DNA from: a virus
Reading direction: 5' to 3' (one strand)
DNA length: 64,000 bases
Virus record (IMG/VR): IMGVR_UViG_3300020221_000005
Span: 39,352 to 103,351 of that record
The notes beneath the pieces are model-generated. The model had not been told where the DNA came from, searched no databases, and saw only the letters and a program-made list of their open reading frames with translations. The position numbers and the translations under genes are program-made. Each line of letters begins with the position of its first letter. Within the stretch, counting starts at the first letter, position 1. Shown here in pieces: positions 1-56,194 of this stretch.

Positions 1-301
1 ATTTTTGCGTGGGTTGAATTGGAATGCTAAAGTTATTATTTCAGATGAGTCGCAGAACATGACTACTAAAGAATTGGTGACATTGGTAACCAGAGTTGGA
101 GAGTTCAGCAAATTATTTATATTAGGTGATCCGGATCAATCTGATATTGGAAACAAGAGTGGGTTTAAAAAAATGATTGAATTGTTTTCGGATGAAGATA
201 GTCGAGAAAACGGAGTATATACTTTTGAATTTACTGAGGATGACATTGTTAGGTCTAAACTGGTTAAATTTTTAATTAAAAAAATGAAAAAGATGGGTTA
301 A
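1..301 (+). CDS. phoH: PhoH-family ATPase, C-terminal part (gene starts before the window)
   Basis: (F/L)RG..., Walker B IISDESQN, LVTRVGEFSKLFILGDPDQSD and EDDIVRSKLV are the PhoH C-terminal motifs; the frame is open to the window edge. Confidence 0.92.
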   Translation, partial: FLRGLNWNAKVIISDESQNMTTKELVTLVTRVGEFSKLFILGDPDQSDIGNKSGFKKMIELFSDEDSRENGVYTFEFTEDDIVRSKLVKFLIKKMKKMG

Positions 302-322
302 AGACTATTTATCTTCTGATAT

Positions 323-2134: not shown

Positions 2135-2156
2135 TTAAGTCTTGATAATAATTTGT

Positions 2157-2303
2157 ATGGATTCTAACAATAAAAGTATAGATGATCTTTTAGAAGAAAT
2201 TTTAAAAATTTCATTTGAGAAGGCAAAGAATGGAGACGTTGATTTTGCTAAAATTAATGAGTTGGCGTATATTATAAAGAAAAAGTTATTGTATTTAAAA
2301 TAA
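2157..2303 (+). CDS. small hypothetical protein (48 aa, MDSNNKSIDDLLEEILKISFEKAK...), not in the ORF track
   Basis: ATG 2157 to TAA 2303 fills the gap between two genes; amphipathic helical composition. Confidence 0.6.
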   Translation: MDSNNKSIDDLLEEILKISFEKAKNGDVDFAKINELAYIIKKKLLYLK

Positions 2304-2304
2304 G

Positions 2305-2332
2305 TTGAATAGTTATTGAATTGAGTTAATAT
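2305..2332 (+). promoter_or_regulatory. sigma70-like early promoter of the HD gene
   Basis: TTGAAT(2305-2310)-N16-TAATAT(2327-2332), 6 nt before ATG 2339; same geometry at 30878 and 57996. Confidence 0.55.
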
Positions 2333-2338
2333 GGGCGG

Positions 2339-3001
2339 ATGAAAGAATATACTGAGGTTGAATTACAAACAAACTACGAAAATTTTTTATCTTTAATAAA
2401 GTCTTTATTTTCGGGAGAGAGACTTGAAAGGTTGTTATATTTATACGATGAAGATCAGTTTGGATTGCGTTTGATTACCGCGCCGGCTTCTTCAAAGTTA
2501 CATTTTCACAATGCATATATTGGTGGTTATTTGGATCATATTAATAATGTATATCGGGCGTCTTTGGGGGTAAAGAAGTTGTGGGAAGTGATGGGGGCTA
2601 CGATAGATTTTACGGATGAGGAGTTGGCGTTTTCGGCGTTGCATCACGATTTAGGAAAGTTGGGTGACAAGCAGCAGGGAGAGTATTATTTGCCACAGGA
2701 TAACGATTGGTATATTAAAAATCGTGGTGAGGCATTTAAATTTAATTCAAATTTGCAATATATGGATGTTGCGGATAGGGCGTTATATATTTTGCAGCAA
2801 TATCAAATTAAGTGTAGTTGGAGAGAAACTTTGGCTATAAAGTTGTCGGATGGTTTATATAATGAGGCGAACACTTCTTATTTAAAGAATTACAATAATG
2901 ATCATGATTTAAAAAGCAATCTTCCTAGAATTATTCACCATGCGGATTATTTGGCGTGTAGGGTTGAATATGACGCGTGGAATTCTGTTAAAAATTCTTG
3001 A
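2339..3001 (+). CDS. HD-domain metal-dependent phosphohydrolase (YhaM-like)
   Basis: HNAYIGGYLDH, ALHHDLGK and IHHADY motifs. Confidence 0.85.
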   Translation: MKEYTEVELQTNYENFLSLIKSLFSGERLERLLYLYDEDQFGLRLITAPASSKLHFHNAYIGGYLDHINNVYRASLGVKKLWEVMGATIDFTDEELAFSALHHDLGKLGDKQQGEYYLPQDNDWYIKNRGEAFKFNSNLQYMDVADRALYILQQYQIKCSWRETLAIKLSDGLYNEANTSYLKNYNNDHDLKSNLPRIIHHADYLACRVEYDAWNSVKNS

Positions 3002-3099
3002 TATAATATTATTTTGGTATATATGTATATATGTCAACACCTATGTTGGGTTGGCACAGATGTATATCCATGTGGAGTACATAAATAGAAAGATAAAAT

Positions 3100-3579
3100 A
3101 TGAATATTATAAAAAACAATCCGTTATTTCGTTACACATCTCGCGATGAATTTTTGACACCCTTTGATAAAATCTTTGATGATTTTTATAAAGCTACTTC
3201 TCCGAATTTTGGCAAGGAATTTGGGGTAGATTTTTTTGAAAAGGGTGCATATCCTAAGATAAATGTGACCGAGTACGAAAATTTGGTGATTATAGAGGCT
3301 GGTATTCCTGGTTTGACTAAAGCTGATATTAATGTGGAGATAGAAACGGGAGTGTTAACTATTACAGGAAATAAAGTTTCAAAAAATAACACAAACGATG
3401 TAATATGTAATTCGTATCGTGAATTAAAGCATAGTAGTTTTGTTCGTAGTTTTAGTTTGAGTGAAAATATTGATACTGATACAGTTGATGCGAAAGTTGA
3501 AAATGGGTTATTAACTATTGTGTTAAAAAAGTTAAAACCGACTAATATTTCCAACAAGAAAAAGGTTAATATTAGTTAA
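3100..3579 (+). CDS. hsp20: small heat-shock protein (Hsp20/alpha-crystallin)
   Basis: YPKINVTE, IEAGIPGLTKADINVEI, FVRSFSLSENID, AKVENGLLTIVL. Confidence 0.93.
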   Translation: MNIIKNNPLFRYTSRDEFLTPFDKIFDDFYKATSPNFGKEFGVDFFEKGAYPKINVTEYENLVIIEAGIPGLTKADINVEIETGVLTITGNKVSKNNTNDVICNSYRELKHSSFVRSFSLSENIDTDTVDAKVENGLLTIVLKKLKPTNISNKKKVNIS

Positions 3580-3603
3580 AAATAAAGGTTATATTTGACC
3601 TTT

Positions 3604-3631
3604 AACCCTCGATCAAATCGAGGGTTTTTTT
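3604..3631 (+). terminator. intrinsic terminator after hsp20
   Basis: AACCCTCGAT-CAA-ATCGAGGGTT perfect stem followed by a T run. Confidence 0.85.
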
Positions 3632-3653
3632 ATTTTTACACTATTTATAAAAT

Positions 3654-4454
3654 ATGAATAAGTTTAATTTTAAAAATTTGGTAGGAATTACTTCATTATT
3701 TATTGCTGCGTGTGCGGCATATTTTTCTATAATTGGAATTGCGATGTTATTTTCTGGTTCTAAACAATCGGCTATAATCATGGCATTTTCGTTAGAGTTA
3801 GGTAAATTAGTAGCGACGAGTTATTTATTTAGATATTGGCAAGACACACGCCGGCTTTTAAAGTTTTATTTAACACTGAGTGTTATTGTATTAATGTTTA
3901 TAACGTCATTGGGTATCTTTGGTTATTTAAGTGCATCGTATCAACGGTCTTCGTTGGCAGATAAGGCTAACGAGGAAAAAATTCAAATATATGAATCTAA
4001 GAAAACCTCATATGTTGATAAAATTTCACAATCGAAATCGAGAATAAAAAGTCTTGAAGATTTGCGGATCTCACAGGAACGTAGATTGAGTGAGGCGATG
4101 ACGAATATATTTATAGCTAGAAATCCTATTCAGCTACAGGAGATACAGTCTCAAACGGTGGAGTTAATTTCTAGCAACGAAAAAAGTATTGAGGGAGAAA
4201 ACAAAAAAATTCAAGATGCCAACGATGAAATTTTTAAGTTAAATGAGACTATTAATCAGTTTAAATTATCGGGAAGAGAACAAAGTGATATAATTACCTT
4301 TAAATTTGTGGCAGATGAATTTAATTTAACGATGGATAGAGTAGTAAAGTGGTTTATTTCTATATTAATATCAGTTTTTGATCCGTTGGCTATTTGTTTG
4401 TTATTGGCGTATAACAACATTATATTTTTGGAAGACAAAAAAAAAATAATATAG
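3654..4454 (+). CDS. membrane protein with three N-terminal TM segments, a coiled coil and a C-terminal TM segment
   Basis: Hydrophobic segments, LELGKLV and ITSLGIFGYLS motifs, heptad-rich middle, VFDPLAICLLLA; late motif at 3642. Confidence 0.75.
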   Translation: MNKFNFKNLVGITSLFIAACAAYFSIIGIAMLFSGSKQSAIIMAFSLELGKLVATSYLFRYWQDTRRLLKFYLTLSVIVLMFITSLGIFGYLSASYQRSSLADKANEEKIQIYESKKTSYVDKISQSKSRIKSLEDLRISQERRLSEAMTNIFIARNPIQLQEIQSQTVELISSNEKSIEGENKKIQDANDEIFKLNETINQFKLSGREQSDIITFKFVADEFNLTMDRVVKWFISILISVFDPLAICLLLAYNNIIFLEDKKKII

Positions 4455-4616
4455 TTGGAGAGAAAATTATTGACAATAAAAGTTTACATAATACTGTAGG
4501 AAGAAATCTGAATGCGTCTAATGCTAAATATAAAAACGTTAGAAAGCATGATATTTTTTCTAGATTGTTTAGAAATAATTGATTTTGGAAAAAGATTTTA
4601 ATATATAGTTTATATT

Positions 4617-4754
4617 ATGGGTGATGAAAATATAACTGAGGTTTTAAGATTATTAAAGAAATCAATCAAAACAAAAGATTGGGAGTATGTTTTGGAGTCG
4701 ATAGACTATCTAGAAGAATATGTCGAAGACGATTCAGACGATGAAAAATACTAA
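4617..4754 (+). CDS. small acidic hypothetical protein (45 aa, MGDENITEVLRLLKKSIKTKDWEYVLESIDYLEE...), not in the ORF track
   Basis: ATG 4617 to TAA 4754, 5 nt before the next ATG. Confidence 0.65.
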   Translation: MGDENITEVLRLLKKSIKTKDWEYVLESIDYLEEYVEDDSDDEKY

Positions 4755-4759
4755 TTTAA

Positions 4760-5041
4760 ATGGATCATATTTTACTTATATTGTTTATAATTTCTTTAAT
4801 TGGAAATATTATATTATTTAAGTTATTTCGTATAAATTTAACTAAAGTGGATATTTACGAAGCTTGGATTTTAGGATATAAAAATCAAATTGAAGAAACG
4901 TATCAGGCGTTAAAATTTGTAGATGAAAAACAAATATTTGAAAAAGATGATGAAGTTGGTTTTGTATTTTCTGACATATTGAAAATTATCAAAGATTTAA
5001 GGACTAAAATTTATGAAGAAGAAACTACTAAAGAAGAATAA
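4760..5041 (+). CDS. small membrane-anchored hypothetical protein
   Basis: N-terminal TM helix and FEKDDEVGFVF motif; operon spacing. Confidence 0.7.
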   Translation: MDHILLILFIISLIGNIILFKLFRINLTKVDIYEAWILGYKNQIEETYQALKFVDEKQIFEKDDEVGFVFSDILKIIKDLRTKIYEEETTKEE

Positions 5042-5876
5042 AATGCGAAAAGTGCGTAAAATAAGTAAACCCAAGTCTTTTTTAAAATCAAAAAAGTTTT
5101 TTAAAAAACAAAATAAAATAAAAAAAATTAAGGTGATAAATATAACCGACTCAGTTAGTTCTAACAATATTAAGCCGGTCGAAGTTGTTAGAAAACGTTC
5201 AGGAAAAGGAAAAATGTATTTTACAAAAGAAACTGAGGATGCAATTATTTCTTACAACAACGAGGTTGACGATCTTATAAAAAATCAAATTTTTGAGACT
5301 AAGATAAAATTTGCTTTGGAAAAATTGGTAGAGAATATATTTAATACTTTTAAATTTACGTATTTTGATGTAGGTCCGTTAGAAGTACAAAAAGAAACTT
5401 TATCTCATCTTGTAGCAAATCTGCATAAGTATGAATCTGGAAAAGGAAAAGCTTTTGCATATTTTAGTATAATAGCAAAAAACTATTTAATTTTTCATAA
5501 TAATACCAATTACAAGCGATATAATCAACATGTAGATATTAGCGAAGAAAATGAAGAAAACACGGTAAGATTACAATCTGAAGATTCTCACTATAAAAAT
5601 GTAGAGACACAACAGTTTATAAAGATGATGGTAGAATATTGGGAAAAAAATTTAAATGATATTTTTTCTAAAAAAAGAGATTTGAAAATTGCGGAAGCCG
5701 TTGTGGAGTTATTTAGAAATAGTGATCGAATAGATTATTTCAATAAAAAAGCATTATATCTTTATATTAGAGAAATTTCTTCTTGCAAAACGCAGCAGAT
5801 AACCAAAGTAATTAATAAAATGAAAGAGTATCAAGATAAAATAACGAGGTTATATATGGAACATGGAAAAATTTGA
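5013..5876 (+). CDS. late-transcription sigma factor (T4 gp55-like)
   Basis: MYFTKETEDAI, EKLVENIFNTFKF and LHKYESGKGKAFAYFSIIAKNYLI resemble sigma region 2 / gp55 (KSxNPFAYFT); extra Lys-rich N-terminus. Confidence 0.7.
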   Translation: MKKKLLKKNKMRKVRKISKPKSFLKSKKFFKKQNKIKKIKVINITDSVSSNNIKPVEVVRKRSGKGKMYFTKETEDAIISYNNEVDDLIKNQIFETKIKFALEKLVENIFNTFKFTYFDVGPLEVQKETLSHLVANLHKYESGKGKAFAYFSIIAKNYLIFHNNTNYKRYNQHVDISEENEENTVRLQSEDSHYKNVETQQFIKMMVEYWEKNLNDIFSKKRDLKIAEAVVELFRNSDRIDYFNKKALYLYIREISSCKTQQITKVINKMKEYQDKITRLYMEHGKI

Positions 5877-6591
5877 TAATAAGTATTACGCTTATCAACT
5901 TGTCGATTCTTCTGACGGCAAGACTTTTTATGTTGGTAAAGGTTGTAAGAACCGAATGTATAAACATGAAAAGGATGTTAGATTAGGAAAAATTCCCAAT
6001 AAAACAAATTATAAATTATATTATAAAATAAAAAAATTAATTGACGAAAACATTCCTATATTGTACGAAAAATTAACCGAAAATGTTAATGAGTTAGAAG
6101 CTTTAGCCTTAGAATCTGCATTTATAGAATATTATGGAATAGAGAATTTATGTAATTATTTCAAAAGTTGGTCAGGAAAATCTTTCAGAAGCGAACAGAC
6201 TAGAAAAAAACAAAGTTTGGCGAATAAAGGACCAAACTCTTATATGTATGGCAAACCCAAAACGGCGGATCAAACTTTAAAAAATAAAATTGCTCACTTG
6301 GGAAAGAATAACTATAGATATATACATAAAAAGTATACATTTTATAATAAAAATCTTGATATATTAGAGACTTTAACTCCTTACGATTTTAGAAAAAAAT
6401 ATAACATAGATAGTGGCGGGTTACATTTATTTTTGAAAGGAAAACGTTTTTCTATAAAAGGCTGGACGTTAGGAATTCCACTGGAAGATATTGAAAAAAA
6501 CCGAAGATCCAAAATAAGTAAAAAATTAAAAGGAAAGGCTAAAACTATAACCCACCGTAAAAACTTATGGAAAAATCGAAAAAAAACTTGA
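5863..6591 (+). CDS. free-standing GIY-YIG homing endonuclease with NUMOD3-like DNA-binding repeats
   Basis: YYAYQLVD...FYVGKGCKNRMYKH...EALALESAFI...LCN (GIY-YIG/LEM-3 type); SEQTRKKQSLANKGPNSYMYGK NUMOD3-like; overlaps the sigma gene stop. Confidence 0.85.
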   Translation: MEKFDNKYYAYQLVDSSDGKTFYVGKGCKNRMYKHEKDVRLGKIPNKTNYKLYYKIKKLIDENIPILYEKLTENVNELEALALESAFIEYYGIENLCNYFKSWSGKSFRSEQTRKKQSLANKGPNSYMYGKPKTADQTLKNKIAHLGKNNYRYIHKKYTFYNKNLDILETLTPYDFRKKYNIDSGGLHLFLKGKRFSIKGWTLGIPLEDIEKNRRSKISKKLKGKAKTITHRKNLWKNRKKT

Positions 6592-35097: not shown

Positions 35098-37953
35098 ATG
35101 CATGGTGGTAACAAAAAGGGAACAGTATACAATTTATTAAGTCGTGATGTGGATATCATCGACAAATCTTATAGATCCGACTATTTTATTGTGTCGGACT
35201 TGGGTTATACATTGACATCAGGAAAAAACTTTTTTACTATAAATGGTTCGAATAAATTAAAACCTAACGCGGCAATATTATTAGAAATTGTCGACTCTGA
35301 AAATAACGTTTTATATTATGAAACTGCAAAAAGTGGTTATTTCAAATATTTAGATACTACAGATTTGATCGTTGGCGTACATGTATATGAATCTACGCCT
35401 ATTGGGTTTGGCACAGTAACATTACTTGGAACAACGGTAGATGGGAAGTCAGTTCGATGGTCTACAAATATAAAAATAAACTCTAAATTAGAAAACTCTT
35501 CTAGAGTAGTGTTTTTCCAGGATCCAAAAATTGAGATTTCTGAATTTTTGTCATTTATTTTAAATCAAAATATCTCTCAACAGCAACAATTTATTAATGA
35601 AATTTCAGGAAATATATATTGTTATAGTAATTTTCCAAAAGCATATTCAGATATTAAATCTATAGATTTTACTAAATTTGATTCCGATTATCGATTACGT
35701 TATATAGATACTTCTTCTGTGAATTTTTTAAACTTATTTTCTAAAGATAATATAAATAATGAAATAATTCTTAATATAAAAGAAATAGCTTATTTAGATA
35801 ATAATGTATTAAAAACAGCTTCGTTAAATATCACAGAGTCTTTTAATGTAAAAAACGTAATAAATAATTTTGAATTGCAATTAGATAGACCATTTATATA
35901 TAAAATAAACACCGTTAATCAAGTTGTGCCAATTATTTCCGCGTCTTTTAATCATAAATTCTTTTCGAATATATATATCACTTCATCGGGTCTTACAGGA
36001 AGTGGAGATGGAACTCCTGCTCCGACTGTTTTTTTAAATCAACAAATAGAAGGTGAAACTAAATTTTTAAAAGAATCATTTTTAGATGTAACTTATAAAA
36101 ATTTAAAAACTCTTACAGGAAAAGTTCATCGTCACAAAATTTATAGACGAAGTTTAAATAAAGCCTCTGATTTTGAATGTATTGCGGATGAACCGTTGTT
36201 GGAAAAAGAATTTATAGCCGATACCTCCACGATCAACCGATTTTATTCAAATATAGGAGAATTTTATAATTTAGACCACATAAATAGATATTATTATACA
36301 AGTTCTTCAGATTTATCACTGTCACACAGTTCGGTTGAAGTTTTAAATTCTCTTGTGTGTAATATAAAAGATTTGAATCTTGACCAATCTAGATACATCA
36401 TCATAAAAAATGACACGTCTTTGAAAACTAAAAATGAACATTCTTCATCATATATAGACTATGACGATGCATCATTTTTAATTCAAACAGGATCATCATA
36501 TGATTCTAATTTTATAAAATTATATAAAAATGCTGATTATTTATTCTCGGCTAATTTAGAAATTGAAAAAATCTCTGCATCTTTAGAAAGTAAGCTATTA
36601 TTTTATTTTACTGGCTCCTACAACACTTCATCTGCGATAGTAGAAAAAAATTATTCGGTGGATAAAGGATTAATTTTACATCAATATGTTTTACCAATAG
36701 GAACTAATTTTAAAAGATTTACTAAAAAAGATTTTAACGAATTGTATTTTTTAAACGATTATGTTGGTACTATCGTAATTGTTCCTGTAAACATTAAAAA
36801 ATTTAGATTGGATAATCTTTCTTTGAAGTCTCATGCAGAACGTGGATTTTCTACTGATTCTTTTTTTACAAGAATTTCCTGTCCCGTCACAATTAAAAAC
36901 GAACAATTTGAAATAAAATCGGAGTTGTTGGATATTAATAATAATTCTATATATTCCGATTTAAACAAGATTATAGCCGTGGATAAATCCGGCGAAACTT
37001 TATTTAGAAATATCTCGGGCGTTGTTAATGCAAATGCTGAAACTGTACTCAATCTTATCGGATCCGGATCAGGAAAAATAAGTTTTAGCGCATCTCGCGA
37101 TGGCCAAGCGGCAACTTTATCTGTTATAGAAAGCTTTGATGTGATAATGGGCAGCCTTAATGGGGCTAGATTTTTTCAAGTGGAAAAATCGGGAAATGAA
37201 ACTTATATGAAGTTGTCTGGATCTTTTTATTTAACAGGTTCTCAATATATAAAAGATGGAGGCATCAGTGCTAGCGGTGCAATCAGTGGTAGCACGTTAC
37301 ATGGCACCACATTAATTACGTCGCCGATAGGCAACTTCATCAATTTAACAGCAAGCAACATCAGTGCCAGTAACTTAATCAGTGGTAGCACGTTACATGG
37401 CACCACATTAATTACGTCGCCGATAGGCAACTTCATCAATTTAACAGCAAGCAACATCAGTGCCAGTAACTTAATCAGTGGTAGCAAGTTACATGGCACC
37501 ACATTAATTACGTCGCCGATAGGCAACTTCATCAATTTAACAGCAAGCAACATCAGTGCCAGTAACTTAATCAGTGGTAGCACGTTATATGGCACCACAT
37601 TAATTACGTCGCCGATAGGCAACTTCATCAATTTAACAGCAAGCAACATCAGTGCCAGTAACTTAATCAGTGGTAGCAAGTTACATGGCACCACATTAAT
37701 TACGTCGCCGATAGGCAACTTCATCAATTTAACAGCAAGCAACATCAGTGCCAGTAACTCAATTAGCGGAAATTTATTTGGAACAAGTAGTTATGCTAAA
37801 ACCAGCAGTCTCGGTTATTTTGTGTTTAATCATGGGCATAATAATAATTTTACCGCTTCTAATTTCGGTCAGTCTGCCAGAACTGCGTCTGGATATATTA
37901 GAGCGAATGTAAATGGATCAGATATTTATATACCGTATTATTCAAATATATAA
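35098..37953 (+). CDS. virion structural protein with C-terminal fibre-like 32-aa repeats
   Basis: Late motif at 35077; beta-rich body; five repeats of ISGSTLHGTTLITSPIGNFINLTASNISASNL; terminal GYIRANVNGSDIYIPYY trimer-tip-like motif. Confidence 0.65.
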   Translation: MHGGNKKGTVYNLLSRDVDIIDKSYRSDYFIVSDLGYTLTSGKNFFTINGSNKLKPNAAILLEIVDSENNVLYYETAKSGYFKYLDTTDLIVGVHVYESTPIGFGTVTLLGTTVDGKSVRWSTNIKINSKLENSSRVVFFQDPKIEISEFLSFILNQNISQQQQFINEISGNIYCYSNFPKAYSDIKSIDFTKFDSDYRLRYIDTSSVNFLNLFSKDNINNEIILNIKEIAYLDNNVLKTASLNITESFNVKNVINNFELQLDRPFIYKINTVNQVVPIISASFNHKFFSNIYITSSGLTGSGDGTPAPTVFLNQQIEGETKFLKESFLDVTYKNLKTLTGKVHRHKIYRRSLNKASDFECIADEPLLEKEFIADTSTINRFYSNIGEFYNLDHINRYYYTSSSDLSLSHSSVEVLNSLVCNIKDLNLDQSRYIIIKNDTSLKTKNEHSSSYIDYDDASFLIQTGSSYDSNFIKLYKNADYLFSANLEIEKISASLESKLLFYFTGSYNTSSAIVEKNYSVDKGLILHQYVLPIGTNFKRFTKKDFNELYFLNDYVGTIVIVPVNIKKFRLDNLSLKSHAERGFSTDSFFTRISCPVTIKNEQFEIKSELLDINNNSIYSDLNKIIAVDKSGETLFRNISGVVNANAETVLNLIGSGSGKISFSASRDGQAATLSVIESFDVIMGSLNGARFFQVEKSGNETYMKLSGSFYLTGSQYIKDGGISASGAISGSTLHGTTLITSPIGNFINLTASNISASNLISGSTLHGTTLITSPIGNFINLTASNISASNLISGSKLHGTTLITSPIGNFINLTASNISASNLISGSTLYGTTLITSPIGNFINLTASNISASNLISGSKLHGTTLITSPIGNFINLTASNISASNSISGNLFGTSSYAKTSSLGYFVFNHGHNNNFTASNFGQSARTASGYIRANVNGSDIYIPYYSNI
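37282..37761 (+). repeat. 96-bp tandem repeat x5
   Basis: Units at 37282, 37378, 37474, 37570 and 37666, nearly identical. Confidence 0.95.
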
Positions 37954-37964
37954 TATATATACAT

Positions 37965-38735
37965 ATGTCGCACATAAGTTTAATTAATCTTATAAAAGAA
38001 ACCAGATTGGCATCTAACCCTAAAGATCTGGAAAAAAATTCTGATAGATTAGAAACTTCTATAAATTTTCTTAAAAGCAAAAATAAAGTGTTGATTTTAG
38101 CCACGTCAAATCGATGGGAAGGGCACAAAGATGACGAAGCGAAATCTACGGTTTTAGCTAAAATTGTTCATGATAGATTGGGGTCTGATAAATCCACATT
38201 TATTGATGTTTCTAAATTAAATATTTTTGTTTGCGAAGGAAATGTTTCTACAAAGTGGGGTAACAATTGTGGGGTCAAAGAATCGATTTTAAAAGATAAA
38301 GATAAAAATCCTACTGGACAATTAAGATGCTGGGCTAGTGTTAATAATAAATCAGATGAGCTTTGGAAAATTTCAAAGGTGTTATTTGAGAGCGACTGCA
38401 TTCTTTTTTTCACTTCAATTCGGTGGGGGCAAACTAACAGCATATATCAAAAATTAATAGAGAGATTGACGTGGTTAGAAAATCGACACACTACGTTAGG
38501 CGAGTCTAATATATTAAAAGATAAAGATGCGGGTATGATTGCTATAGGTCAAAACTGGAACGGTAGTCGGGTAATAGATACTCAAAAAGATATTTTTAAT
38601 CATTTCGGATTTAATGTTCCTGCGGAAATTTCTTGGAACTGGCAGTATACGGAAGATAAATATGATGAAACTAAAAATTCATATAAAAAAGCAATAACTA
38701 CATTTAATGACACGTTTAAATCGCATGAAAAATAA
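37965..38735 (+). CDS. flavodoxin-fold protein (NADPH-dependent FMN reductase / iron-sulfur flavoprotein-like)
   Basis: ILATSNR...STVLA, LNIFVCEG...C...RCW, DELWKISKVLFESDCILFFTSIRWG...QKLIERL, LKDKDAGMI. Confidence 0.78.
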   Translation: MSHISLINLIKETRLASNPKDLEKNSDRLETSINFLKSKNKVLILATSNRWEGHKDDEAKSTVLAKIVHDRLGSDKSTFIDVSKLNIFVCEGNVSTKWGNNCGVKESILKDKDKNPTGQLRCWASVNNKSDELWKISKVLFESDCILFFTSIRWGQTNSIYQKLIERLTWLENRHTTLGESNILKDKDAGMIAIGQNWNGSRVIDTQKDIFNHFGFNVPAEISWNWQYTEDKYDETKNSYKKAITTFNDTFKSHEK

Positions 38736-41583
38736 ATACTATGAAATTTTAAAATCTGAAATTGATGAAATAGTTGAAGAATACATACAACATATTTTGT
38801 CAGAAAGTTTAGACGTTAGTATTAAACATTTAAATAAAGAAATAGACACAATTCAAAAAGCGTCTAACTTTATCAGTAAAAAGTTACATGTAGAAGAAAA
38901 AATAGATGGTACAAAACTAATTTTAGTAAGAAAAAATACAGATTCTTCAAATTATTCGGATAATTGGATTGTATCTTATAAAGGAAATATTTTGCATCCT
39001 GAAGAATTTGAACATTTTAATGAGAAGGATATAAAAGACATAAGTTCTAAATCTATAGGTATTTCTCAGTATAAAAATGTTTTTGAAAAGCTTAAAAAAA
39101 TAAATGATAAAATTTCTTTGGTTCCAAAAAATACTGCGTTTAGTTTAGAATTTGCTCAAAATAAAGACACATTGACTCGAACATATGTAACTACTCAAGC
39201 TTTATTTTTACGGTCTTTTGCGAATGTAAAATATTATGTAAATGACGGATTTTTGACTATTTCTAGTACAAGCGGAGAAATTACAGATTTTAATAGTATA
39301 AATGATATGGCTCGAATACTGGATATCTATACTTTTCCGGTAATTTTAGACGGATATATTAATACTAGAGAAAATTTTATTTCTGCAATAAAGTCTGATG
39401 AACTTCTTGGTATTTTTAATAAAACCGAAATAAATTTCGACGATTCTCTTGATATAATTTCTAAATTTTCTAAAATGATGGTATCGTTTTCATCTAAGTT
39501 AGGCGGAAAGCCAGAAGGCGTGGTGATACATACTTCAGATAATAAATTATATAAAGTTACACAGTCGGATCAATACGATTTAACCGTTAGGAGTAATAAA
39601 AAATTATCATCTCAGATGGATGCTGAATCTGAAAAAGAATATCAAAATAAAATTTCTGAACTTGCAAGGGGATTTGTAGATAGACTTGATTTTAGTAATT
39701 CGGTTGAAAATTTATTAAAAACGTATAATGATTTTATTAAAAAAGTTGATTTAGAAAAAATACACCATTCTAAAAAATCTCGTATAAATAAGATCGACGA
39801 TCTCATGTTAGCGGGAAAGTTTTTAATACAGAGATACGTTTTTTCTGGAAGAAATACAAAAACTTTGGGATTGGTTCCAATGGCAGCAAAACCTGTACAT
39901 TTGGGCCATTGGAAGTTAATACAACTCGCGTCGAAAGAAAATAATAATGTGATTGTTTATATTAGCGAAAAAGATCGTATCAAAAAAGGAGAGTATCCTA
40001 TAACAGGAAATCAAATGATACAGATATGGAATGAAATCTTAAAACGATATCTGCCAAATAATGTAAAAATAAAATTTGTAGACAGTCCTGTTTCTGCGGT
40101 TCGTTATATGCTTTTAGATTTAGATAAAGAATTTAATGAATCGCCTATCGTGAACATATATTCCGACATAGACGACATAAATTCATATAACTCAGAAGAA
40201 TTCAAATCAAAATATAAAAATTTATTTGGTTTAAATAAAATTAAATTAAGAGGGATAGAACGTTCTCACACGGTTGATATAAGTGGAACAAAAATGCGTG
40301 AATTTTTACAAAATGATGATAAACTTTCATTTACTAAAAATTTGCCCGATATTTCTGATTTAGACAAAGAGAAAATATATAACTTAATAAAAAATATTTC
40401 AAGATCAAAAACTTTGAACGAAAGTGGTCAATCGATTGCATCGATTGATCCTAAGACTCCTAAAACAGTTAACGGCAAAACTGCTAGAGCTGATAAAAAA
40501 CTCAATATTTCTGGTGGAAATAGAACAATTATTTCTGACCATATAAGAGATTTAGCTATTACCTTAAATAAACATATAAATTTTTGGAATCCAAACAATC
40601 CATATATTAAAAGCGGTTATATCTTTAATGGAAGTTCACAGCATCTAATGAATCCTGATGTGGATGATATATTAAGGAAAAAAACCGGCGATCCTGACAT
40701 TTCTTTGGAAAAAATAAAATCTGATTACGGTGATATAGATATTATTGTTCCTATAACTAAACTAGATGAACTTAAGAAATTTTTAGACACAAAGGATGAT
40801 AATAAAAGTGAATGGGAACCTGGATCAGAAAATAAAATAACCGACCAATTTTTTTATGTCGGTAGAACAAAGAGTGCCGCAGCAATACCTGATCAATTAG
40901 TTACTATTTTTTGGTACAAACCAAATAATCAAATTGTTCAGGTTGATTTCGAGGGAGACAATATGGTTAAAGATCAGCAAGGTTATGAGAAACCTTCTGA
41001 ATGGACTAAATTTTCAAAAGATTCTCCATTAGATGATTTGGCTAAAGGAATTAAAGGATTGGCAGGCGCAATTTTATTACGGTCATTAGCTAGAGGAACT
41101 ACCAGATTAGAAAATGTAATAGTTCTGACTCCCGGCGGAGTCAAAAAATATAAAGAAAAAAAAGAAATAACAGACAGGGAAATTTCTAAAAATAAAAGAG
41201 ACTCTATTCCATCTGAATATACTCTAAATACAGGCGGCGGAGGTGCAGGAATAAGAAAAGCTTATAACTATGTTGGAAAAATAAATAATAAAGATGCTTA
41301 TGAGTTTGTAGAAGCGCGAACGGCAAAAGATATGGGAGAAAAATTTGTATCAATTACAAATTTATCAAAAATATTTGAAATAATTTTTAAAAAATCTCCC
41401 ACATCGGATGACTTAAATAACTTTAGAAGTTTTCAGGGTCTTTTAAAAATGATGCGAGATAACTTAGACAAAAAAACTATAAATATTGTATTGAACAGAT
41501 TCGTGGAGATTATAAAAACCGAAAATATTTCTTCTACTGAAAAATCTGCTATAGAAGACATGATTAAATCTACTTTAACATAA
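38725..41583 (+). CDS. multidomain protein: RNA/ATP-ligase-like domain, HxGH cytidylyltransferase-like domain and Pol-beta-type nucleotidyltransferase (start probably ATG 38725)
   Basis: EEKIDG/FSLEF/PEGVVIH/LYKV; AAKPVHLGHW...ISGTKMREF; NGSS...YGDIDII...QVDFE. Confidence 0.75.
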   Translation: MKNKYYEILKSEIDEIVEEYIQHILSESLDVSIKHLNKEIDTIQKASNFISKKLHVEEKIDGTKLILVRKNTDSSNYSDNWIVSYKGNILHPEEFEHFNEKDIKDISSKSIGISQYKNVFEKLKKINDKISLVPKNTAFSLEFAQNKDTLTRTYVTTQALFLRSFANVKYYVNDGFLTISSTSGEITDFNSINDMARILDIYTFPVILDGYINTRENFISAIKSDELLGIFNKTEINFDDSLDIISKFSKMMVSFSSKLGGKPEGVVIHTSDNKLYKVTQSDQYDLTVRSNKKLSSQMDAESEKEYQNKISELARGFVDRLDFSNSVENLLKTYNDFIKKVDLEKIHHSKKSRINKIDDLMLAGKFLIQRYVFSGRNTKTLGLVPMAAKPVHLGHWKLIQLASKENNNVIVYISEKDRIKKGEYPITGNQMIQIWNEILKRYLPNNVKIKFVDSPVSAVRYMLLDLDKEFNESPIVNIYSDIDDINSYNSEEFKSKYKNLFGLNKIKLRGIERSHTVDISGTKMREFLQNDDKLSFTKNLPDISDLDKEKIYNLIKNISRSKTLNESGQSIASIDPKTPKTVNGKTARADKKLNISGGNRTIISDHIRDLAITLNKHINFWNPNNPYIKSGYIFNGSSQHLMNPDVDDILRKKTGDPDISLEKIKSDYGDIDIIVPITKLDELKKFLDTKDDNKSEWEPGSENKITDQFFYVGRTKSAAAIPDQLVTIFWYKPNNQIVQVDFEGDNMVKDQQGYEKPSEWTKFSKDSPLDDLAKGIKGLAGAILLRSLARGTTRLENVIVLTPGGVKKYKEKKEITDREISKNKRDSIPSEYTLNTGGGGAGIRKAYNYVGKINNKDAYEFVEARTAKDMGEKFVSITNLSKIFEIIFKKSPTSDDLNNFRSFQGLLKMMRDNLDKKTINIVLNRFVEIIKTENISSTEKSAIEDMIKSTLT

Positions 41584-45822: not shown

Positions 45823-45886
45823 ATACACTATAAATGTGTTTTTTTTAAAAGACTAATATATTTATAAACTAAAGTAGTTAGATAAT

Positions 45887-46753: not shown

Positions 46754-47562
46754 GTAAATTAAAAAACATCATAAAAGAACTTACCAAAGAAATAATGGAT
46801 GAAATGTCCACTACGGGAGGCGTGGCCGGCTATTCTACACCTTTTGCTTTTAGTAAAGGTGGAAAAAATAAAGCTACTAAAGCTATGGAAAAGTTGGGAT
46901 TTAAAACTGTAGAAGAAAAAATGGATCCGGTTGGAAAAGAGGATAGCGATATTAATAATGATGGAAAAGTGAATAAACAAGATAAATATCTTTTAAATCG
47001 TAGAAAAAAAATCGGTCACGCAATTGCACGTAGAAACAGCGGTAGGTTAGATGAAGAAACGGTTGATATTTCTGCGACAATTATAGACCCCCTTAAAAAA
47101 ACAGCGGAAACTTTAGATAAAGAACAAAAAACTAAGCTAGAAGCTAAATTAAAAGAGTTTGAGACTCAGTTACAACAAAAAATTTCTGGAAAAATTATAA
47201 ATTTTAAAGGTAAAAAGGGTGACCCTTATCAATCAGTAAAAGATTATCGCGTAAGACTATCACCGTATGCAGCAACTCCGATTGAAATTGAAAACTGGCC
47301 AAGTAAAAATAATCCTTTAAATTTTCAAATAAAAATTATAGGAAAGCAAATTTCAGATACTGGAAAGGAATTCGGCGTCGAGTCAGGATTTTTTATAGAT
47401 TTTTCTCTTCCGAATTCATTTTCAATTGGAGATGCAGCTCAACCGGCTGCTCAACCAGCTGCTCAACCGGCTGCTCAACCAGCTGCTCAACCGGCTGCTC
47501 AACCAGCTGCTCAACCAGCTGCTCAACCAGCAAATACTCTTGATGGACAAGTTGCCAGATAA
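46750..47562 (+). CDS. putative prohead core/internal protein
   Basis: MSKLKNIIKELTKEIMDE leader, EMSTTGGVAGYSTPFAF, EF-hand-like DINNDGKVNKQD, AAQP repeats. Confidence 0.65.
   Translation: MSKLKNIIKELTKEIMDEMSTTGGVAGYSTPFAFSKGGKNKATKAMEKLGFKTVEEKMDPVGKEDSDINNDGKVNKQDKYLLNRRKKIGHAIARRNSGRLDEETVDISATIIDPLKKTAETLDKEQKTKLEAKLKEFETQLQQKISGKIINFKGKKGDPYQSVKDYRVRLSPYAATPIEIENWPSKNNPLNFQIKIIGKQISDTGKEFGVESGFFIDFSLPNSFSIGDAAQPAAQPAAQPAAQPAAQPAAQPAAQPAAQPANTLDGQVAR
47434..47529 (+). repeat. 12-bp tandem repeat x8 (gctgctcaacc[ag]; AAQP)
   Basis: Directly visible. Confidence 0.92.
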
Positions 47563-47566
47563 AATT

Positions 47567-48181
47567 ATGAATAAACAATTATTAACAAATTGTATTCCTT
47601 TTCAAACAGTAAAAACTACGCTGAATGAATCTACGTCGGTAGCAGGAAAAATGGTGGTCTCAGGAATTTTACAAAGAGCCAATGCAAAAAATCAAAATGG
47701 TAGAATTTATCCATTAGATGTTCTTAAACGAGAGGTTGAAAAGTATAATCAAACTTTTGTAAAAGAAAAACGTGCGGTAGGAGAACTTGATCATCCAGAT
47801 AGTGAAGTTGTAAATCTTAAAAATGTTTCTCATAATATTACTAAAACTTGGTGGGACAATAACGATTTAATGGGTGAAGTGGAAATTTTAACTACTCCGA
47901 GTGGAAATATTTTAAAAGAACTATTAAAGTGTGGAATTACCGTTGGAATTTCCAGCCGAGGATCAGGTTCGGTAAAAAAAGTAAATGAAAGTACTGTTGA
48001 AGTCAACGATGACTTCTCACTAATAGCTTTTGACTTTGTTAGCAATCCTTCGACTGTTGGAGCTTTTATGTTACCCGAGTCTCCTTTGAATGAATCTGTA
48101 AAAATTTTACAAAATCCCATTACTAACAAATGGGAAACTGTGGAAAAAATAATACGTGATATTATTAACGAAATAAAATAA
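47567..48181 (+). CDS. gp21: prohead core protease (T4 gp21-like); true start ATG 47567
   Basis: NQNGRIYP, GELDHP, VSHNIT, ILTTPSG, GISSRGSGS, FDFVSNPS. Confidence 0.94.
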   Translation: MNKQLLTNCIPFQTVKTTLNESTSVAGKMVVSGILQRANAKNQNGRIYPLDVLKREVEKYNQTFVKEKRAVGELDHPDSEVVNLKNVSHNITKTWWDNNDLMGEVEILTTPSGNILKELLKCGITVGISSRGSGSVKKVNESTVEVNDDFSLIAFDFVSNPSTVGAFMLPESPLNESVKILQNPITNKWETVEKIIRDIINEIK

Positions 48182-53328: not shown

Positions 53329-54492
53329 TATGACAAGTGAACTCTTAAAAGAGGCAATTGCTGACGCCAAGGCCGTCCGTGCAACTGCCATTGCAAATGC
53401 AAAACTCGCATTGGAAGAAGCCTTTACTCCAAGATTACAATCCATGTTAGGGCAAAAACTTCGTGAAGAACTTGATGAGAACGAATTGGAAGAATCCTCT
53501 GATGATACGACTGAAAATATCACTTCGGAAGAAGTTGATGAAATGTTAAAAGAGCTTGATGTGGAGAAAGCAGATGAAAATGCCGCCCCTGCTGCTACCG
53601 TTGCTGCAGATCCTACTGCCGCTCCTGTTGCTGCCGATCCTGCTGCCGCTCCTGCTGCTGCCGCTCCTGCTGCTGCCGCTCCTGCTGCTGCCGCTCCTGC
53701 TGTTGCCGATCCTGCTGCTGCCGCTCCTGCTGCCGCTCCTGCTGTTGTCGCTCCTGCTGTTGCCGCTCCTGCTGCCGATCCTGCTGCCGATCCTGCTGCC
53801 GCTCCTGCTGTTGCCGCTCCTGCTGTTGCCGCTCCTGCTGCCGATCCTGCTGCCGATCCTGCTGCCGCTCCTGCTATTGATTCCAAGACTGTTTCTGAAA
53901 GCGACGATTCGGATGAGGTTGATTTAGAGGAACTTCTCGCTGAAATAAATGAGATGGACGTCGACAGTATGACTGAGGAAGACGACGGCATGACTGAGGA
54001 AAACGACAGTATGACTGAGGTTGATTTAGATGAACTTCTCGCTGAACTAAATAAAGAGGGAGACACAGAACACGATGAAGACGATGATACTAAAACCTCA
54101 GAAGCCGTTAAATCTGAATTAAATGAGGCTTTGAAAACCGTAGAGTTTTTAAAAACTCAGTTAAATGAAGTGAATTTGTTGAATGCGAAATTGCTTTATA
54201 CCAATAAATTATTTAAAGCACATGCATTAGACAACAACCAAAAAATGAAGATTATTGAAGCGTTTGATTTGACCAAGTCCGTCCGTGAAGTCAAATTGAC
54301 CTACAATAATTTGTCTGAAGCATTGAATCTTAGCAAAGTGAAGACTGCTCCTAAGAAGTCTCCGATTGCTGAAGGCTTCGCATCAAATACAACTGGAACA
54401 ACCAAGCCCGTTCAGGCAGAGAAATCTGTCATTTCGGAGTCGGTTAACGGACAGGTTTCGAGATTCCAAAAACTCGCTGGAATTAAGAAATA
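53329..54492 (+). CDS. prohead core scaffolding protein (gp22-position), acidic with Ala-Pro linker (ORF track 53330..54493)
   Basis: LLKEAIADAKAVRATAIANAKLALEEAFTP, LNEVNLLNAKLLYTNKLF, RFQKLAGI; immediately upstream of the major capsid gene. Confidence 0.8.
53583..53875 (+). repeat. mosaic gct/gcc/cct/gat repeats encoding AAP/AADP
   Basis: Directly visible GC-rich low-complexity tract. Confidence 0.9.
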
Positions 54493-54532
54493 AAAAAATT
54501 TGCGTAAAAAACAGTAAAACAAAAACAAAAAT

Positions 54533-56194
54533 ATGAGTGATATTAAAGAATTGTTAACTAACAATACGAATCCTATGAGCCGCCTCTTGGAGGAGACTCG
54601 TGGATTACAAGGCAAGTGGGAAAAAACCGGCTTGCTCGAGGGGTTGGCTGGTACCGAAAAGGCTCAAATGTCTGTATTGCTTGAGAACCAAGCACAGCAG
54701 TTGATCAAAGAGGCTACCTCAACCGGAACTAGCGCAAACAGTGAACAGTGGGCAGGCGTAGCTCTTCCGCTCGTTCGCCGTGTGTTCGCTGAAATCGCTG
54801 CGAAGGAATTCGTAAGCGTTCAACCAATGAATCTTCCAAGTGGACTTATCTTTTACTTGGATTTCAAATATGGTAATACTAAATCAGGAGTCACGAGTGG
54901 AGATAGTCTATTCGGCGGAACTTTAAAGAAACTTGGTTCTACTGACAGTGCCGTTAATGGTTTGTATGGTGCCGGTCGTTTTGGATACACCATTAATCCT
55001 GTTTCTGTAGCAGCTACATTAAATACAGGCTCCACATCAGGTTTGACTGTCTGGGAAGCTTGTAATTTTGATGCAGACTTCAGCGCAAGTGCTGCTGCCG
55101 GAACTTATCAAAAATTCACAATTAACTTAGCTTCAAACTCTGATAATTTAGATTTGAACGCGATTAGAAGTTTCAACTTCTTCTCTGCTTCTGTAGATTG
55201 TGGAGTTTTGGATCAGTTCACAAAAGTTTACAATACTGGCTCTGCAACATCTCCATATTATGTAGTTACTGGAGTGGGATTAAGCAGCGTAATTGATCAC
55301 GCAGCTGGAGCTTACAGCGTAACTATTTCTGGAAGCAAACAGCCAACAGATTCTACTCGTGGTGACTTTGAAGATAAAAACAGCACCGGTGATAGCACCA
55401 CAGCTGTTGGTATTCCTGAGGTCAACCTTGAACTCAAGAGCGAACCGATCGTGGCTAAGACCCGCAAGTTAAAAGCAGTCTGGACTCCAGAGCTTGCTCA
55501 GGACTTGAATGCCTACCACAGCATTGATGCTGAGGCAGAATTGACTGCTCTCTTGAGTGAGTATGTTTCTATGGAAATCGATCTCGAAATCCTCGACATG
55601 CTGTTGGTTTCTGCTCCTGGAACAACCACCGAAGCTTGGAGTGCTAAAATTGGCGTAGAGTTTACCAAAACTCTCGATAGCGATGGTAATGCTTCATTTA
55701 CTCGCCTTGACGACAGTTCTCCAAACAGAACCGCCTATGTCAAGAGTTCTTGGTTCCAGACCCTCGGAAGCAAGATTCAACGTGTCTCTAACAAGATTCA
55801 TCAGTTGACTCTCCGTGGTGGAGCTAACTTCTTGGTTTGTTCTCCAGATGTCGCAACCGTCCTCGAATCAATTCCTGGATTCGTTGCTTCAACCGATGGT
55901 GATAGTGCTAAGTTCGCAATGGGTGTAAGCAAAGTTGGTAGCTTCGCAAGTCGCTTCCAGGTTTACAAGAACCCATACATGGTTGAAAACCAAATCTTGG
56001 TTGGATTCCGTGGAAGTAACTTCCTCGAAACTGGCGCAGTCTATTCGCCATATATTCCTCTCGTTCAGACACCACTCGTGTATGATCCAGTCAACTTCAC
56101 GCCACGCCGTGGGGTAATGACAAGATATGCGAAGAAAGTCGTTCGTCCGGAATTTTATGGTCGTATTCAGGTTGCTGACTTGAACCACGTCTAA
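54533..56194 (+). CDS. gp23: major capsid protein (T4 gp23-like)
   Basis: LLENQ, PLVRRVF, VSVQPMNLPSGLIF, AKTRKLKAVWTPELAQDLNAYHSIDAEAEL, YSPYIPL, PRRGVMTRYA; biased codon usage (TTC/AAC/ATC/CGT). Confidence 0.97.
   Translation: MSDIKELLTNNTNPMSRLLEETRGLQGKWEKTGLLEGLAGTEKAQMSVLLENQAQQLIKEATSTGTSANSEQWAGVALPLVRRVFAEIAAKEFVSVQPMNLPSGLIFYLDFKYGNTKSGVTSGDSLFGGTLKKLGSTDSAVNGLYGAGRFGYTINPVSVAATLNTGSTSGLTVWEACNFDADFSASAAAGTYQKFTINLASNSDNLDLNAIRSFNFFSASVDCGVLDQFTKVYNTGSATSPYYVVTGVGLSSVIDHAAGAYSVTISGSKQPTDSTRGDFEDKNSTGDSTTAVGIPEVNLELKSEPIVAKTRKLKAVWTPELAQDLNAYHSIDAEAELTALLSEYVSMEIDLEILDMLLVSAPGTTTEAWSAKIGVEFTKTLDSDGNASFTRLDDSSPNRTAYVKSSWFQTLGSKIQRVSNKIHQLTLRGGANFLVCSPDVATVLESIPGFVASTDGDSAKFAMGVSKVGSFASRFQVYKNPYMVENQILVGFRGSNFLETGAVYSPYIPLVQTPLVYDPVNFTPRRGVMTRYAKKVVRPEFYGRIQVADLNHV

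Follow-up and report, generated by a model that had tools for sequence, protein, structure and literature searches.

A stretch of viral DNA of 64,000 nucleotides (nt), called the window below, carries on its + strand one gene for a predicted chain of three unrelated nucleotidyltransferase folds. The window (positions 39,352 to 103,351) is part of the 103,351-base IMG/VR virus record IMGVR_UViG_3300020221_000005, with a G+C content of 34%. The completeness of the record was 34% by CheckV, implying a genome of about 300 kb, and one relative carrying the same gene is a complete 297-kb record. In our view it is about an even chance that this gene is expressed late and that its product is a polyprotein carried as cargo in the capsid of a giant T4-like freshwater phage of about 300 kb. 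Packaging and cleavage of the polyprotein are somewhat more probable than that, and RNA repair as the job of its modules is proposed by analogy, as a reading that falls a little short of even chances. The parts of the gene were assigned as follows (aa, amino acids; pLDDT, predicted local distance difference test score).

38707..41583, + strand: whole open reading frame, a single open frame of 958 aa
38725..38805, + strand: N-terminal leader, Met7-Glu33 (MKNKYYEILKSE...ILSE), a predicted propeptide resembling a capsid-targeting sequence (CTS), pLDDT below 50
38806..39591, + strand: module 1, RNA-ligase-type adenylyltransferase, aa 34-295, with K65 in EKIDG, E148, E270-G271 and K283
39592..39855, + strand: helical connector of four helices, aa 296-383, from the secondary structure of the model
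39856..40404, + strand: module 2, (H/T)xGH Rossmann-like nucleotidyltransferase, aa 384-566, with PVHLGH and ISGTKMR
40405..40422, + strand: module 2/3 linker SKTLNE, aa 567-572, with a predicted cut after Glu572 (L570-N-E572 ↓ S573-G)
40423..41580, + strand: module 3, Pol-beta-fold nucleotidyltransferase with Pol X-like palm and thumb, aa 573-958

The true start of the polyprotein is probably the ATG at 38725 (Met7), because the closest homologues are conserved from MKNKY and homologue P0005 begins there; no clear Shine-Dalgarno sequence distinguished the ATGs at 38707 and 38725. The original prediction had named a set of motifs in the chain, and translation found every one of them in place. 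In module 1 these were EEKIDG at aa 63-68 (38893), FSLEF at aa 145-149, PEGVVIH from aa 269 (39511) and LYKV with K283, and in module 2 AAKPVHLGH at aa 393-401 (39883-39909) and ISGTKMR at aa 525-531 (40279). KTLNE was located at aa 568-572 (40408), followed in module 3 by NGSS at aa 641-644, GDIDII from aa 675 (40729) and QVDFE at aa 745-749. Conservation of the catalytic residues, which had been proposed as a check, was observed in 34 homologues and in 145 representatives of 50%-identity clusters. Among the 34 homologues, E64, K65, D67, G68, E148, E270, G271 and K283 of the ligase module and H398, G400, H401, S526, G527, T528 and R531 of the HxGH module were invariant, and G642, S643, G675, D676 and D678 of module 3 were conserved in at least 90%. 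Over the wider family of 145 representatives, the ligase residues and the second His held. Because the catalytic residues are conserved across homologues, the motifs can be taken as not due to chance.

The whole protein was modelled with AlphaFold2 from a 34-sequence alignment, giving a mean pLDDT of 86. The pLDDT fell below 50 in just two stretches, aa 1-33 and aa 565-575, and ILSE↓S and TLNE↓S lie within them. On these high-confidence models the earlier claim of three unrelated nucleotidyltransferase folds in one polypeptide was borne out, and all three modules are predicted, from fold and residue conservation, to be catalytically intact.

The structural matches of module 1 were RNA ligases (Rnl2, Rnl5, Rnl3, Trl1, and Rnl1), not DNA ligases. 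VIA-align gave Z 12.8 over 186 aa (3.2 Å) with the Naegleria gruberi RNA ligase (NgrRnl) and Z 12.3 over 187 aa (3.8 Å) with T4 Rnl2, and Foldseek matched 2hvr at E 3e-6. EKIDGTK was aligned by hhalign (E 0.1, motif I only) with EKIHGTN of T4 Rnl2, whose EKIHG lysine is the adenylylated residue. Across the representatives, motif I was retained as K65 in 113/119, D in 115/121 and G in 119/121, and the other ligase residues were kept to a similar degree (E148 115/119, E270 116/120, G271 117/120, and K283 116/117). E148, E270-G271 and K283 were assigned to motifs III, IV and V by fold position, without superposed coordinates. PF09414 (RNA_ligase) matched 21/34 homologues at E <=0.01 (best 3e-6), the query itself giving no match at E up to 1. 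Module 1 therefore resembles T4 Rnl2 and the Naegleria ligase in its adenylyltransferase fold, its motif I lysine and its acidic or basic residues at motifs III, IV and V, whereas the similarity in sequence is confined to motif I. The helical connector is retained throughout between modules 1 and 2; Foldseek aligned 372 columns with full-length T4 Rnl2, and the VIA-align match ended at about aa 295. In contrast to Rnl2 with its C-domain and Rnl5 with its N-terminal OB domain, the query has the connector and the HxGH domain as C-terminal partner. On the model, module 1 is an Rnl2/Rnl5-like RNA-ligase adenylyltransferase domain, for which ligation activity is predicted.

Module 2 matched NadD 4s1o with Z 13.0 over 149 aa (2.9 Å, VIA-align) and PPAT with Z 12.6; NMNAT, NadD and PPAT scored alike. 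Foldseek found an archaeal NMNAT (E 1.4e-4) and phrog_3462 (NMNAT) matched at 3e-7, and the Pfam scores lay just below gathering (PF08218, 19.0 vs 20.9; PF01467, 15.7 vs 21). When the whole-family profile was compared with PDB sequences, the match was confined to the HxGH motif region, with 1f9a and 9x6f weak. The query reads H398-L-G-H401. In the family the first position of (H/T)xGH is H in 58/132 and T in 67/132 representatives, the third is G or A, and the second His is present in 133/135. PPAT uses TxGH as well, and both variants are therefore compatible with activity. The second motif was retained as S526 in 128/132, T or S at 528 in 127/132 and R531 in 94/131. The likeness of module 2 to NadD, NMNAT and PPAT thus covers the fold (Z 13), the (H/T)xGH and ISxTxxR motifs and an Arg preceding the second motif. 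It differs from them in being permanently fused to a ligase, which none of those enzymes is, and in its sub-threshold Pfam scores. Because the HxGH domain is fused repeatedly to KxDG ligase-type modules, in either order, its job appears tied to the ligase, and the sequences suggest that it performs an adenylyl transfer serving the ligase.

Module 3, modelled alone, reached a pLDDT of 93. Its key residues are G642-S643, D676, D678 and a third carboxylate, D747/E749 in QVDFE, which hhalign matched to QVDL of a paralogous module described below. In an exhaustive VIA-align search the top nine matches were all family-X polymerases at Z 6.7-7.8, including Pol beta (7.8), TdT (7.7), Pol mu (7.3), Pol lambda (7.0), Thermus Pol X (7.0) and African swine fever virus (ASFV) Pol X (6.7). 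Nearly all of the top 40 were Pol-beta-fold enzymes, with cGAS-like, TUTase and aminoglycoside-transferase entries ranked under family X. Foldseek gave no strong match (best Pol beta, E 0.013). The ESM Atlas neighbours were viral 'Nucleotidyltransferase' clusters (0.96), and the module corresponds to phrog_19290. The alignments cover only residues ~104-338 of Pol beta; helix-hairpin-helix domains of the 8-kDa/fingers type of Pol X were not recognised in the matches, for which no dedicated search was made. The match with family-X polymerases thus extends over palm and thumb (160-190 residues) and includes the GS, DxD and third carboxylate elements. In contrast, identity is ~10-13%, Z is middling, and module 3 has a long insert between GS and DxD and an extra C-terminal helical region. 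We conclude from the models that module 3 is a Pol-beta-fold enzyme closest to family-X polymerases. The original prediction had typed the modules as RNA ligase, NMNAT/PPAT/cytidylyltransferase and CCA-adding/minimal nucleotidyltransferase; the former two types held, and the third module looks like Pol X. A CCA-adding enzyme fits poorly, with Z 4.2-4.3, below some 30 other Pol-beta-fold entries, and no PF01743 match in the record.

RlaP (PF10127, including T4 NrdC.11) is a Pol-beta enzyme tied genetically to RNA ligases. It adds 1-2 nucleotides to damaged RNA 3' ends, and these additions let repaired tRNA work again. Module 3 shares with it the genetic coupling of a Pol-beta-fold enzyme to an RNA ligase in phages and, by this analogy, addition of 1-2 nucleotides to damaged RNA 3' ends would be its most plausible activity. 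However, the spacing from GS to DxD is 33 residues in module 3 and about 10 in T4 NrdC.11, and module 3 forms a separate family without a detectable sequence relationship. As a member of RlaP by sequence it was rejected: no PF10127 match was found in the record, and hhalign of the profiles of module 3 and its paralogue against T4 NrdC.11 gave a probability below 1%.

A profile search of 1.84 billion representatives returned 1431 clusters at E up to 0.001. Campylobacter phage CP220 gp026 and Vibrio phage pv27 CDS0281 are examples of the common form, module 1+2 of about 500 aa (phrog_27149). Module 2 and module 3 were each found alone as well as joined in module 2+3, and the order HxGH-ligase-module 3 was found too. 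Forms of ~1300 aa have an additional module starting EGGWR between modules 2 and 3, a paralogue of module 3 (hhalign probability 99.8%, E 4e-30), and in forms of ~910 aa modules 1+2 are joined to this EGGWR paralogue. The HxGH domain is also fused to DUF6267 (PF19782, E 1e-87) in proteins P0184 and P0227. DUF6267 has a K[IV]DG motif of its own (K[IV]DGSP), and may by this motif be an unrecognised ligase-type domain.

Separate adjacent genes for the homologues, which the original prediction had suggested looking for, were found. Six metagenome contigs carry the gene in two pieces, divided precisely at the module 2/3 joint, which is the proposed cut site, and a module 1+2 gene (with or without EGGWR) adjoins a module 3 gene of 404-408 aa. 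The split module 3 gene begins M[KNT]NYTQLFWES...[LI]xE↓SG in the five of these six loci whose contig includes its start. In these leaders (e.g., MKNYTQLFWE...LIKE↓SG) Tyr occupies position 4, Leu position 7, Phe or Leu position 8 and Glu position 10, the positions important in the T4 CTS.

In T4, internal proteins are loaded by a 10-residue CTS, MKTYQEFIAE, in which targeting depends on residues 4 and 7 and processing on residues 8 and 10, and the prohead protease gp21 cleaves after L/I-x-E. Beta-galactosidase led by the CTS was packaged in T4 heads and delivered into E. coli, so cargo size would be no barrier to packaging. A protease of this type is encoded in the window.

47426..48181, + strand: gp21-type prohead core protease (Peptidase_S77; PF03420 E 5.8e-30, aa 72-218 of the frame)

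The S77 family was likewise present in 4/4 records of relatives that carry a homologue and were searched. At 47426-47562 the protease frame, whose listed start is a TTG, opens with LNRLLNQLLN repeats and runs over the 3' end of a 270-aa gene that has a PT-repeat match; the real start probably lies farther downstream. Within the first 60 residues of the major head protein (54533-56194) there are six [LI]xE sites, the last of which, LIKE↓A at aa 58-60, is likely the propeptide boundary, and the scaffold candidate (53330-54493, 387 aa) has 17.

The leader of the query begins MKNKYYEIL, ends ILSE↓S and resembles the T4 CTS. Its 27 aa bear three [LI]xE sites (IDE, IVE, and LSE), that is, three of the eight in the protein; the whole protein would be expected to have 10.9, and the other internal sites lie at aa 316, 419, 686 and 889. 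Homology with leaderless relatives begins one residue past ILSE. The same leader pattern was searched for among the 169 open reading frames of the record and was unique to the polyprotein. Many relatives have leaders closer to the T4 CTS (e.g., MKSFKTFITE, MIPFKKFVTE, MLKSFRTFLTE, and MNFRNYLTE). In the retrieved proteins, 47/68 distinct leaders had [LI]xE at most 6 residues from the start of module 1, whereas 2000 shuffles averaged 8.1 such leaders and never exceeded 18.

The joints gave a similar picture. [LI]xE stood directly before the (S/G)G start of module 3 in 29/29 aligned homologues and before module 3 in 75/80 retrieved proteins; the middle residue of the joint is highly variable and the sequence ahead of the motif cannot be aligned. 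The EGGWR paralogue was preceded by [LI]xE in 39/52 proteins, with Glu at P1 in 52/52 and L, I or F at P3 in 48/52. The reading of ILSE and KTLNE as sites like those of a prohead protease is thus supported by the conservation of [LI]xE at the joints and by the encoded S77 protease.

The virion proteome of Campylobacter phage vB_CcoM-IBB_35 provides the one piece of experimental evidence. Its supplementary tables list 38 particle proteins (PMC3322345). Two homologues are in this tandem mass spectrometry (MS/MS) list: gene 1-56 (39251-40417 of contig 1, 44,446 Da, 17.0% coverage) and gene 2-25 (1020 nt, 39,734 Da, 2.9% coverage) (PMC3322345). The former is the module 3 homologue AEF56792 (tblastn E 3e-22), which starts MKLSELMFILE↓GG, and the latter is the module 1 homologue AEI88202 (E 3e-19), whose coordinates map exactly after contig reversal. 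IBB_35 also encodes a gp21 homologue. CP220 gp027, annotated as 'virion structural protein' beside the CP220 homologue, was considered as a relative of module 3 and proved unrelated; the true Campylobacter module 3 homologue is encoded elsewhere in the genome. Radical-SAM or QueE-like genes are neighbours of both homologues in Campylobacter phages (CP220 1-6533), an adjacency that may be coincidental or linked to the modified DNA of these phages.

The S77 protease, the CTS-like leaders, the [LI]xE conserved at the joints and the virion MS of IBB_35 together support packaging and cleavage. The delivery by virions of a cut polyprotein, as originally proposed, gains support from the same four observations, the last of which concerns homologues; for this protein itself we infer it. 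The system shares with T4 IPI, IPII, IPIII and Alt a gp21-type S77 protease encoded nearby, an N-terminal leader of MK.Y..[FIL][IL].E type ending in L/I-x-E, a promoter-like motif common to head genes and homologues in a virion proteome. It differs in its cargo, three enzymes on one 110-kDa polyprotein that bears an internal cut motif, rather than a small basic protein or single enzyme, in that the leader of the query has 27 aa rather than 10 and many relatives are leaderless, and in being known here from sequence alone.

According to the proposed mechanism, the leader would bring the chain into the prohead core, where the S77 protease would trim the leader after Glu33 and cut after Glu572. 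The products would be a ligase-HxGH enzyme of ~62 kDa and a Pol X-like nucleotidyltransferase of ~44 kDa, both of which would be retained in the head until they are ejected into the cell together with the DNA. Their task there would be to mend broken RNA, for which tRNA cleaved by host nucleases is the most plausible candidate. Nucleotides missing from 3'-OH ends would be restored by module 3 in the manner of RlaP, and the ligase would then seal the break via a Lys65-AMP intermediate, with the HxGH domain transferring adenylyl to a 5'-phosphoryl acceptor in the service of the ligase. A wider proposition, which we hold to be possible and clearly short of even, is that T4-like phages widely load RNA-ligase and nucleotidyltransferase enzymes via T4-type leaders, that some lineages fuse them into polyproteins cut by the protease at retained [LI]xE joints, and that the injected tRNA repair kit pre-empts tRNA-cutting defences before phage gene expression.

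Several observations weigh against a packaged RNA-repair cargo. The leader of the query is a looser CTS match than those of many relatives (Tyr at position 5, no Glu at 10), and of the 153 family members whose module 1 is recognisable, 70 begin directly at M(x)LD[IV]SI and are leaderless. In 11 of the relatives the absence of a leader is real, because a promoter-like motif directly precedes the ATG in the DNA (3-5 nt before it). Leaderless relatives nevertheless retain the [LI]xE↓(S/G)G joint; they may be loaded in some other way, or the motif may be preserved for other reasons. Certain database leaders proved spurious, being in-frame extensions that run upstream across a promoter-like motif (e.g., P0039 and P0043), and the leader statistics therefore contain some noise. 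Two standalone module 3 clusters carry PR↓SG in place of [LI]xE, and Vibrio phage versions of module 3 start MGGN. The virion MS concerns distant homologues with ~30% identity to the polyprotein, the detection of the ligase homologue in IBB_35 is weak, at 2.9% coverage, and contaminants can be present in virion preparations. As to the proposed activity, the substrate pocket of the HxGH domain gave no readable assignment, the structural matches of module 3 are middling (Z <8), and neither a kinase nor a phosphatase for end healing turned up in the 103-kb record (~34% of the genome). Pnk-type kinase, RlaP, CCA-adding enzyme and Nampt were likewise not found in this record, which carries little weight at ~34% completeness. 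The complete 297-kb relative has two AAA_33 kinase-like frames.

In a different account the protein is an ordinary cytoplasmic multi-domain RNA-repair enzyme that is never packaged or cut, [LI]xE(S/G)G being the conserved start of the Pol-beta-type module and the leaders unrelated N-terminal extensions. Such fusions are common in jumbo phages, many leaderless homologues still hold the joint motif, [LI]xE is only three residues long and occurs less often in the protein than expected (8 vs 10.9), and the residues from Ser573 pack onto module 3 at high confidence. However, the conserved block begins exactly at P3, with P3 and P1 fixed and P2 highly variable, and the motif lies within disordered segments. 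Since the Vibrio phage version starts directly at MGG, the Glu is not part of the module 3 fold, which thus does not need it. In addition, unrelated short leaders end in [LI]xE well above shuffled controls, and homologues are present in a virion proteome. We regard an uncut cytoplasmic enzyme as unlikely, while it deserves to be taken seriously.

Two further accounts concern what the modules do. A packaged cargo could act on DNA, with a Pol X-like gap filler and a nick-sealing ligase mending the incoming genome. African swine fever virus has such a repair pair, a minimal Pol X and a ligase. The best matches of module 3 are indeed DNA polymerases (beta, mu, lambda, TdT, and ASFV Pol X), the gene lies beside an SbcCD-like nuclease and a primase, and arrival with the DNA suits a job on DNA. 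This account is nonetheless distinctly improbable in our view: module 1 matches RNA and not DNA ligases, PF09414 points the same way in 21/34 homologues, neither the 8-kDa lyase nor the helix-hairpin-helix DNA-binding domain of Pol X was recognised (with no dedicated search), the Z scores of module 3 are only 7-8, and RlaP shows that Pol-beta enzymes associated with ligases can be RNA-specific. The original prediction had also raised NAD+ regeneration, in which the HxGH domain would be a true NMNAT that resynthesises NAD+ against NAD-depleting defences, with the other modules accessory. Its best sequence-level labels are NMNAT (phrog_3462 and, weakly, 1f9a and 9x6f), as is the archaeal Foldseek match. 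However, PPAT and NadD score equally well, about half of the family has TxGH, like PPAT, and the recurrent pairing with KxDG ligase-type modules, whichever of the two comes first, suggests a task linked to the ligase. The genomic context lends NAD+ regeneration no support, because no Nampt or NAPRTase was found in the record or in the complete 297-kb relative, which also has no PF01743 (class II CCA-adding) match. This is the account that we consider very improbable.

The surroundings of the packaged-cargo candidate are T4-like. Primase and SbcCD-like nuclease genes lie upstream, with a baseplate wedge protein gene farther upstream; large terminase and portal genes follow directly downstream, and beyond them lie the gp21-type prohead protease, the scaffold candidate and the major head protein. 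The features next to the polyprotein gene are as follows.

37923..37930, + strand: promoter-like motif TATTTATA, 35 nt upstream of the 256-aa gene
37965..38735, + strand: upstream flavodoxin/FMN_red-like gene, 256 aa, whose end overlaps the start of the polyprotein

At least 10 + strand genes of the window, several head-module genes included, are preceded by TATTTATA at a distance of 4-35 nt. The octamer occurs on the + strand at 3642, 6602, 9599, 30076, 35077 and 37923, and further at 45859, 49928, 50887, 53160/53166, 60116 and 63020. In leaderless relatives a similar motif, TATATACTTATA or TATATATTTATA, stands 3-5 nt before the ATG. From these positions, TATTTATA is likely a late-type promoter with very short leaders. 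The T4 late promoter TATAAATA, which with its complement occurs 38 times against 17 expected, was rejected for the polyprotein gene; it is not upstream, and its + strand copies lie mostly inside genes.

The flavodoxin/FMN_red-like gene is kept at the same position in relative L004 and may be co-transcribed with the polyprotein gene. Its 256-aa product starts MSHISLINLIKE, a 12-residue stretch ending in [LI]xE, and its structural neighbours align only from residue ~12-22; it may be a further capsid-targeted cargo. Between the SbcCD-like gene and this operon, 35098-37953 encodes a 951-aa protein, which has TATTTATA 14 nt upstream and no family match in Pfam or PHROGs. ARAGORN detected 8 tRNA genes in the record (Gly, Arg-UCU, Glu, Ile-UAU, Leu-UAA, Lys-UUU, Met, and Asn), which we count in favour of the proposed repair cargo. 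The tRNA genes and a tmRNA-like gene lie at record positions 6305-37600, within the 39 kb preceding the window.

Injected phage proteins are known to serve anti-restriction (IPI* and DarA/B) and modification of host RNA polymerase (Alt), and virion RNA polymerases are injected as well. A limited literature search found no published description of a packaged RNA ligase or NMNAT fusion. What is new relative to the T4 internal proteins and Alt is the enzyme cargo and the polyprotein arrangement, in which the joints double as points of fission and module swap. If the proposal is true, an injected kit for RNA repair and nucleotidyl transfer would be a new class of cargo, and would change the timing of the race between phages and tRNA-targeting defences (PrrC, RloC, and PARIS). 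A single leader with protease-site joints would be a bacteriophage counterpart of viral polyprotein processing, and this design would offer a handle to find more cargo from sequence. The families phrog_27149 (ligase-HxGH core) and phrog_19290 (Pol X-like) are large and uncharacterised, and any activity established for them would annotate many genomes.

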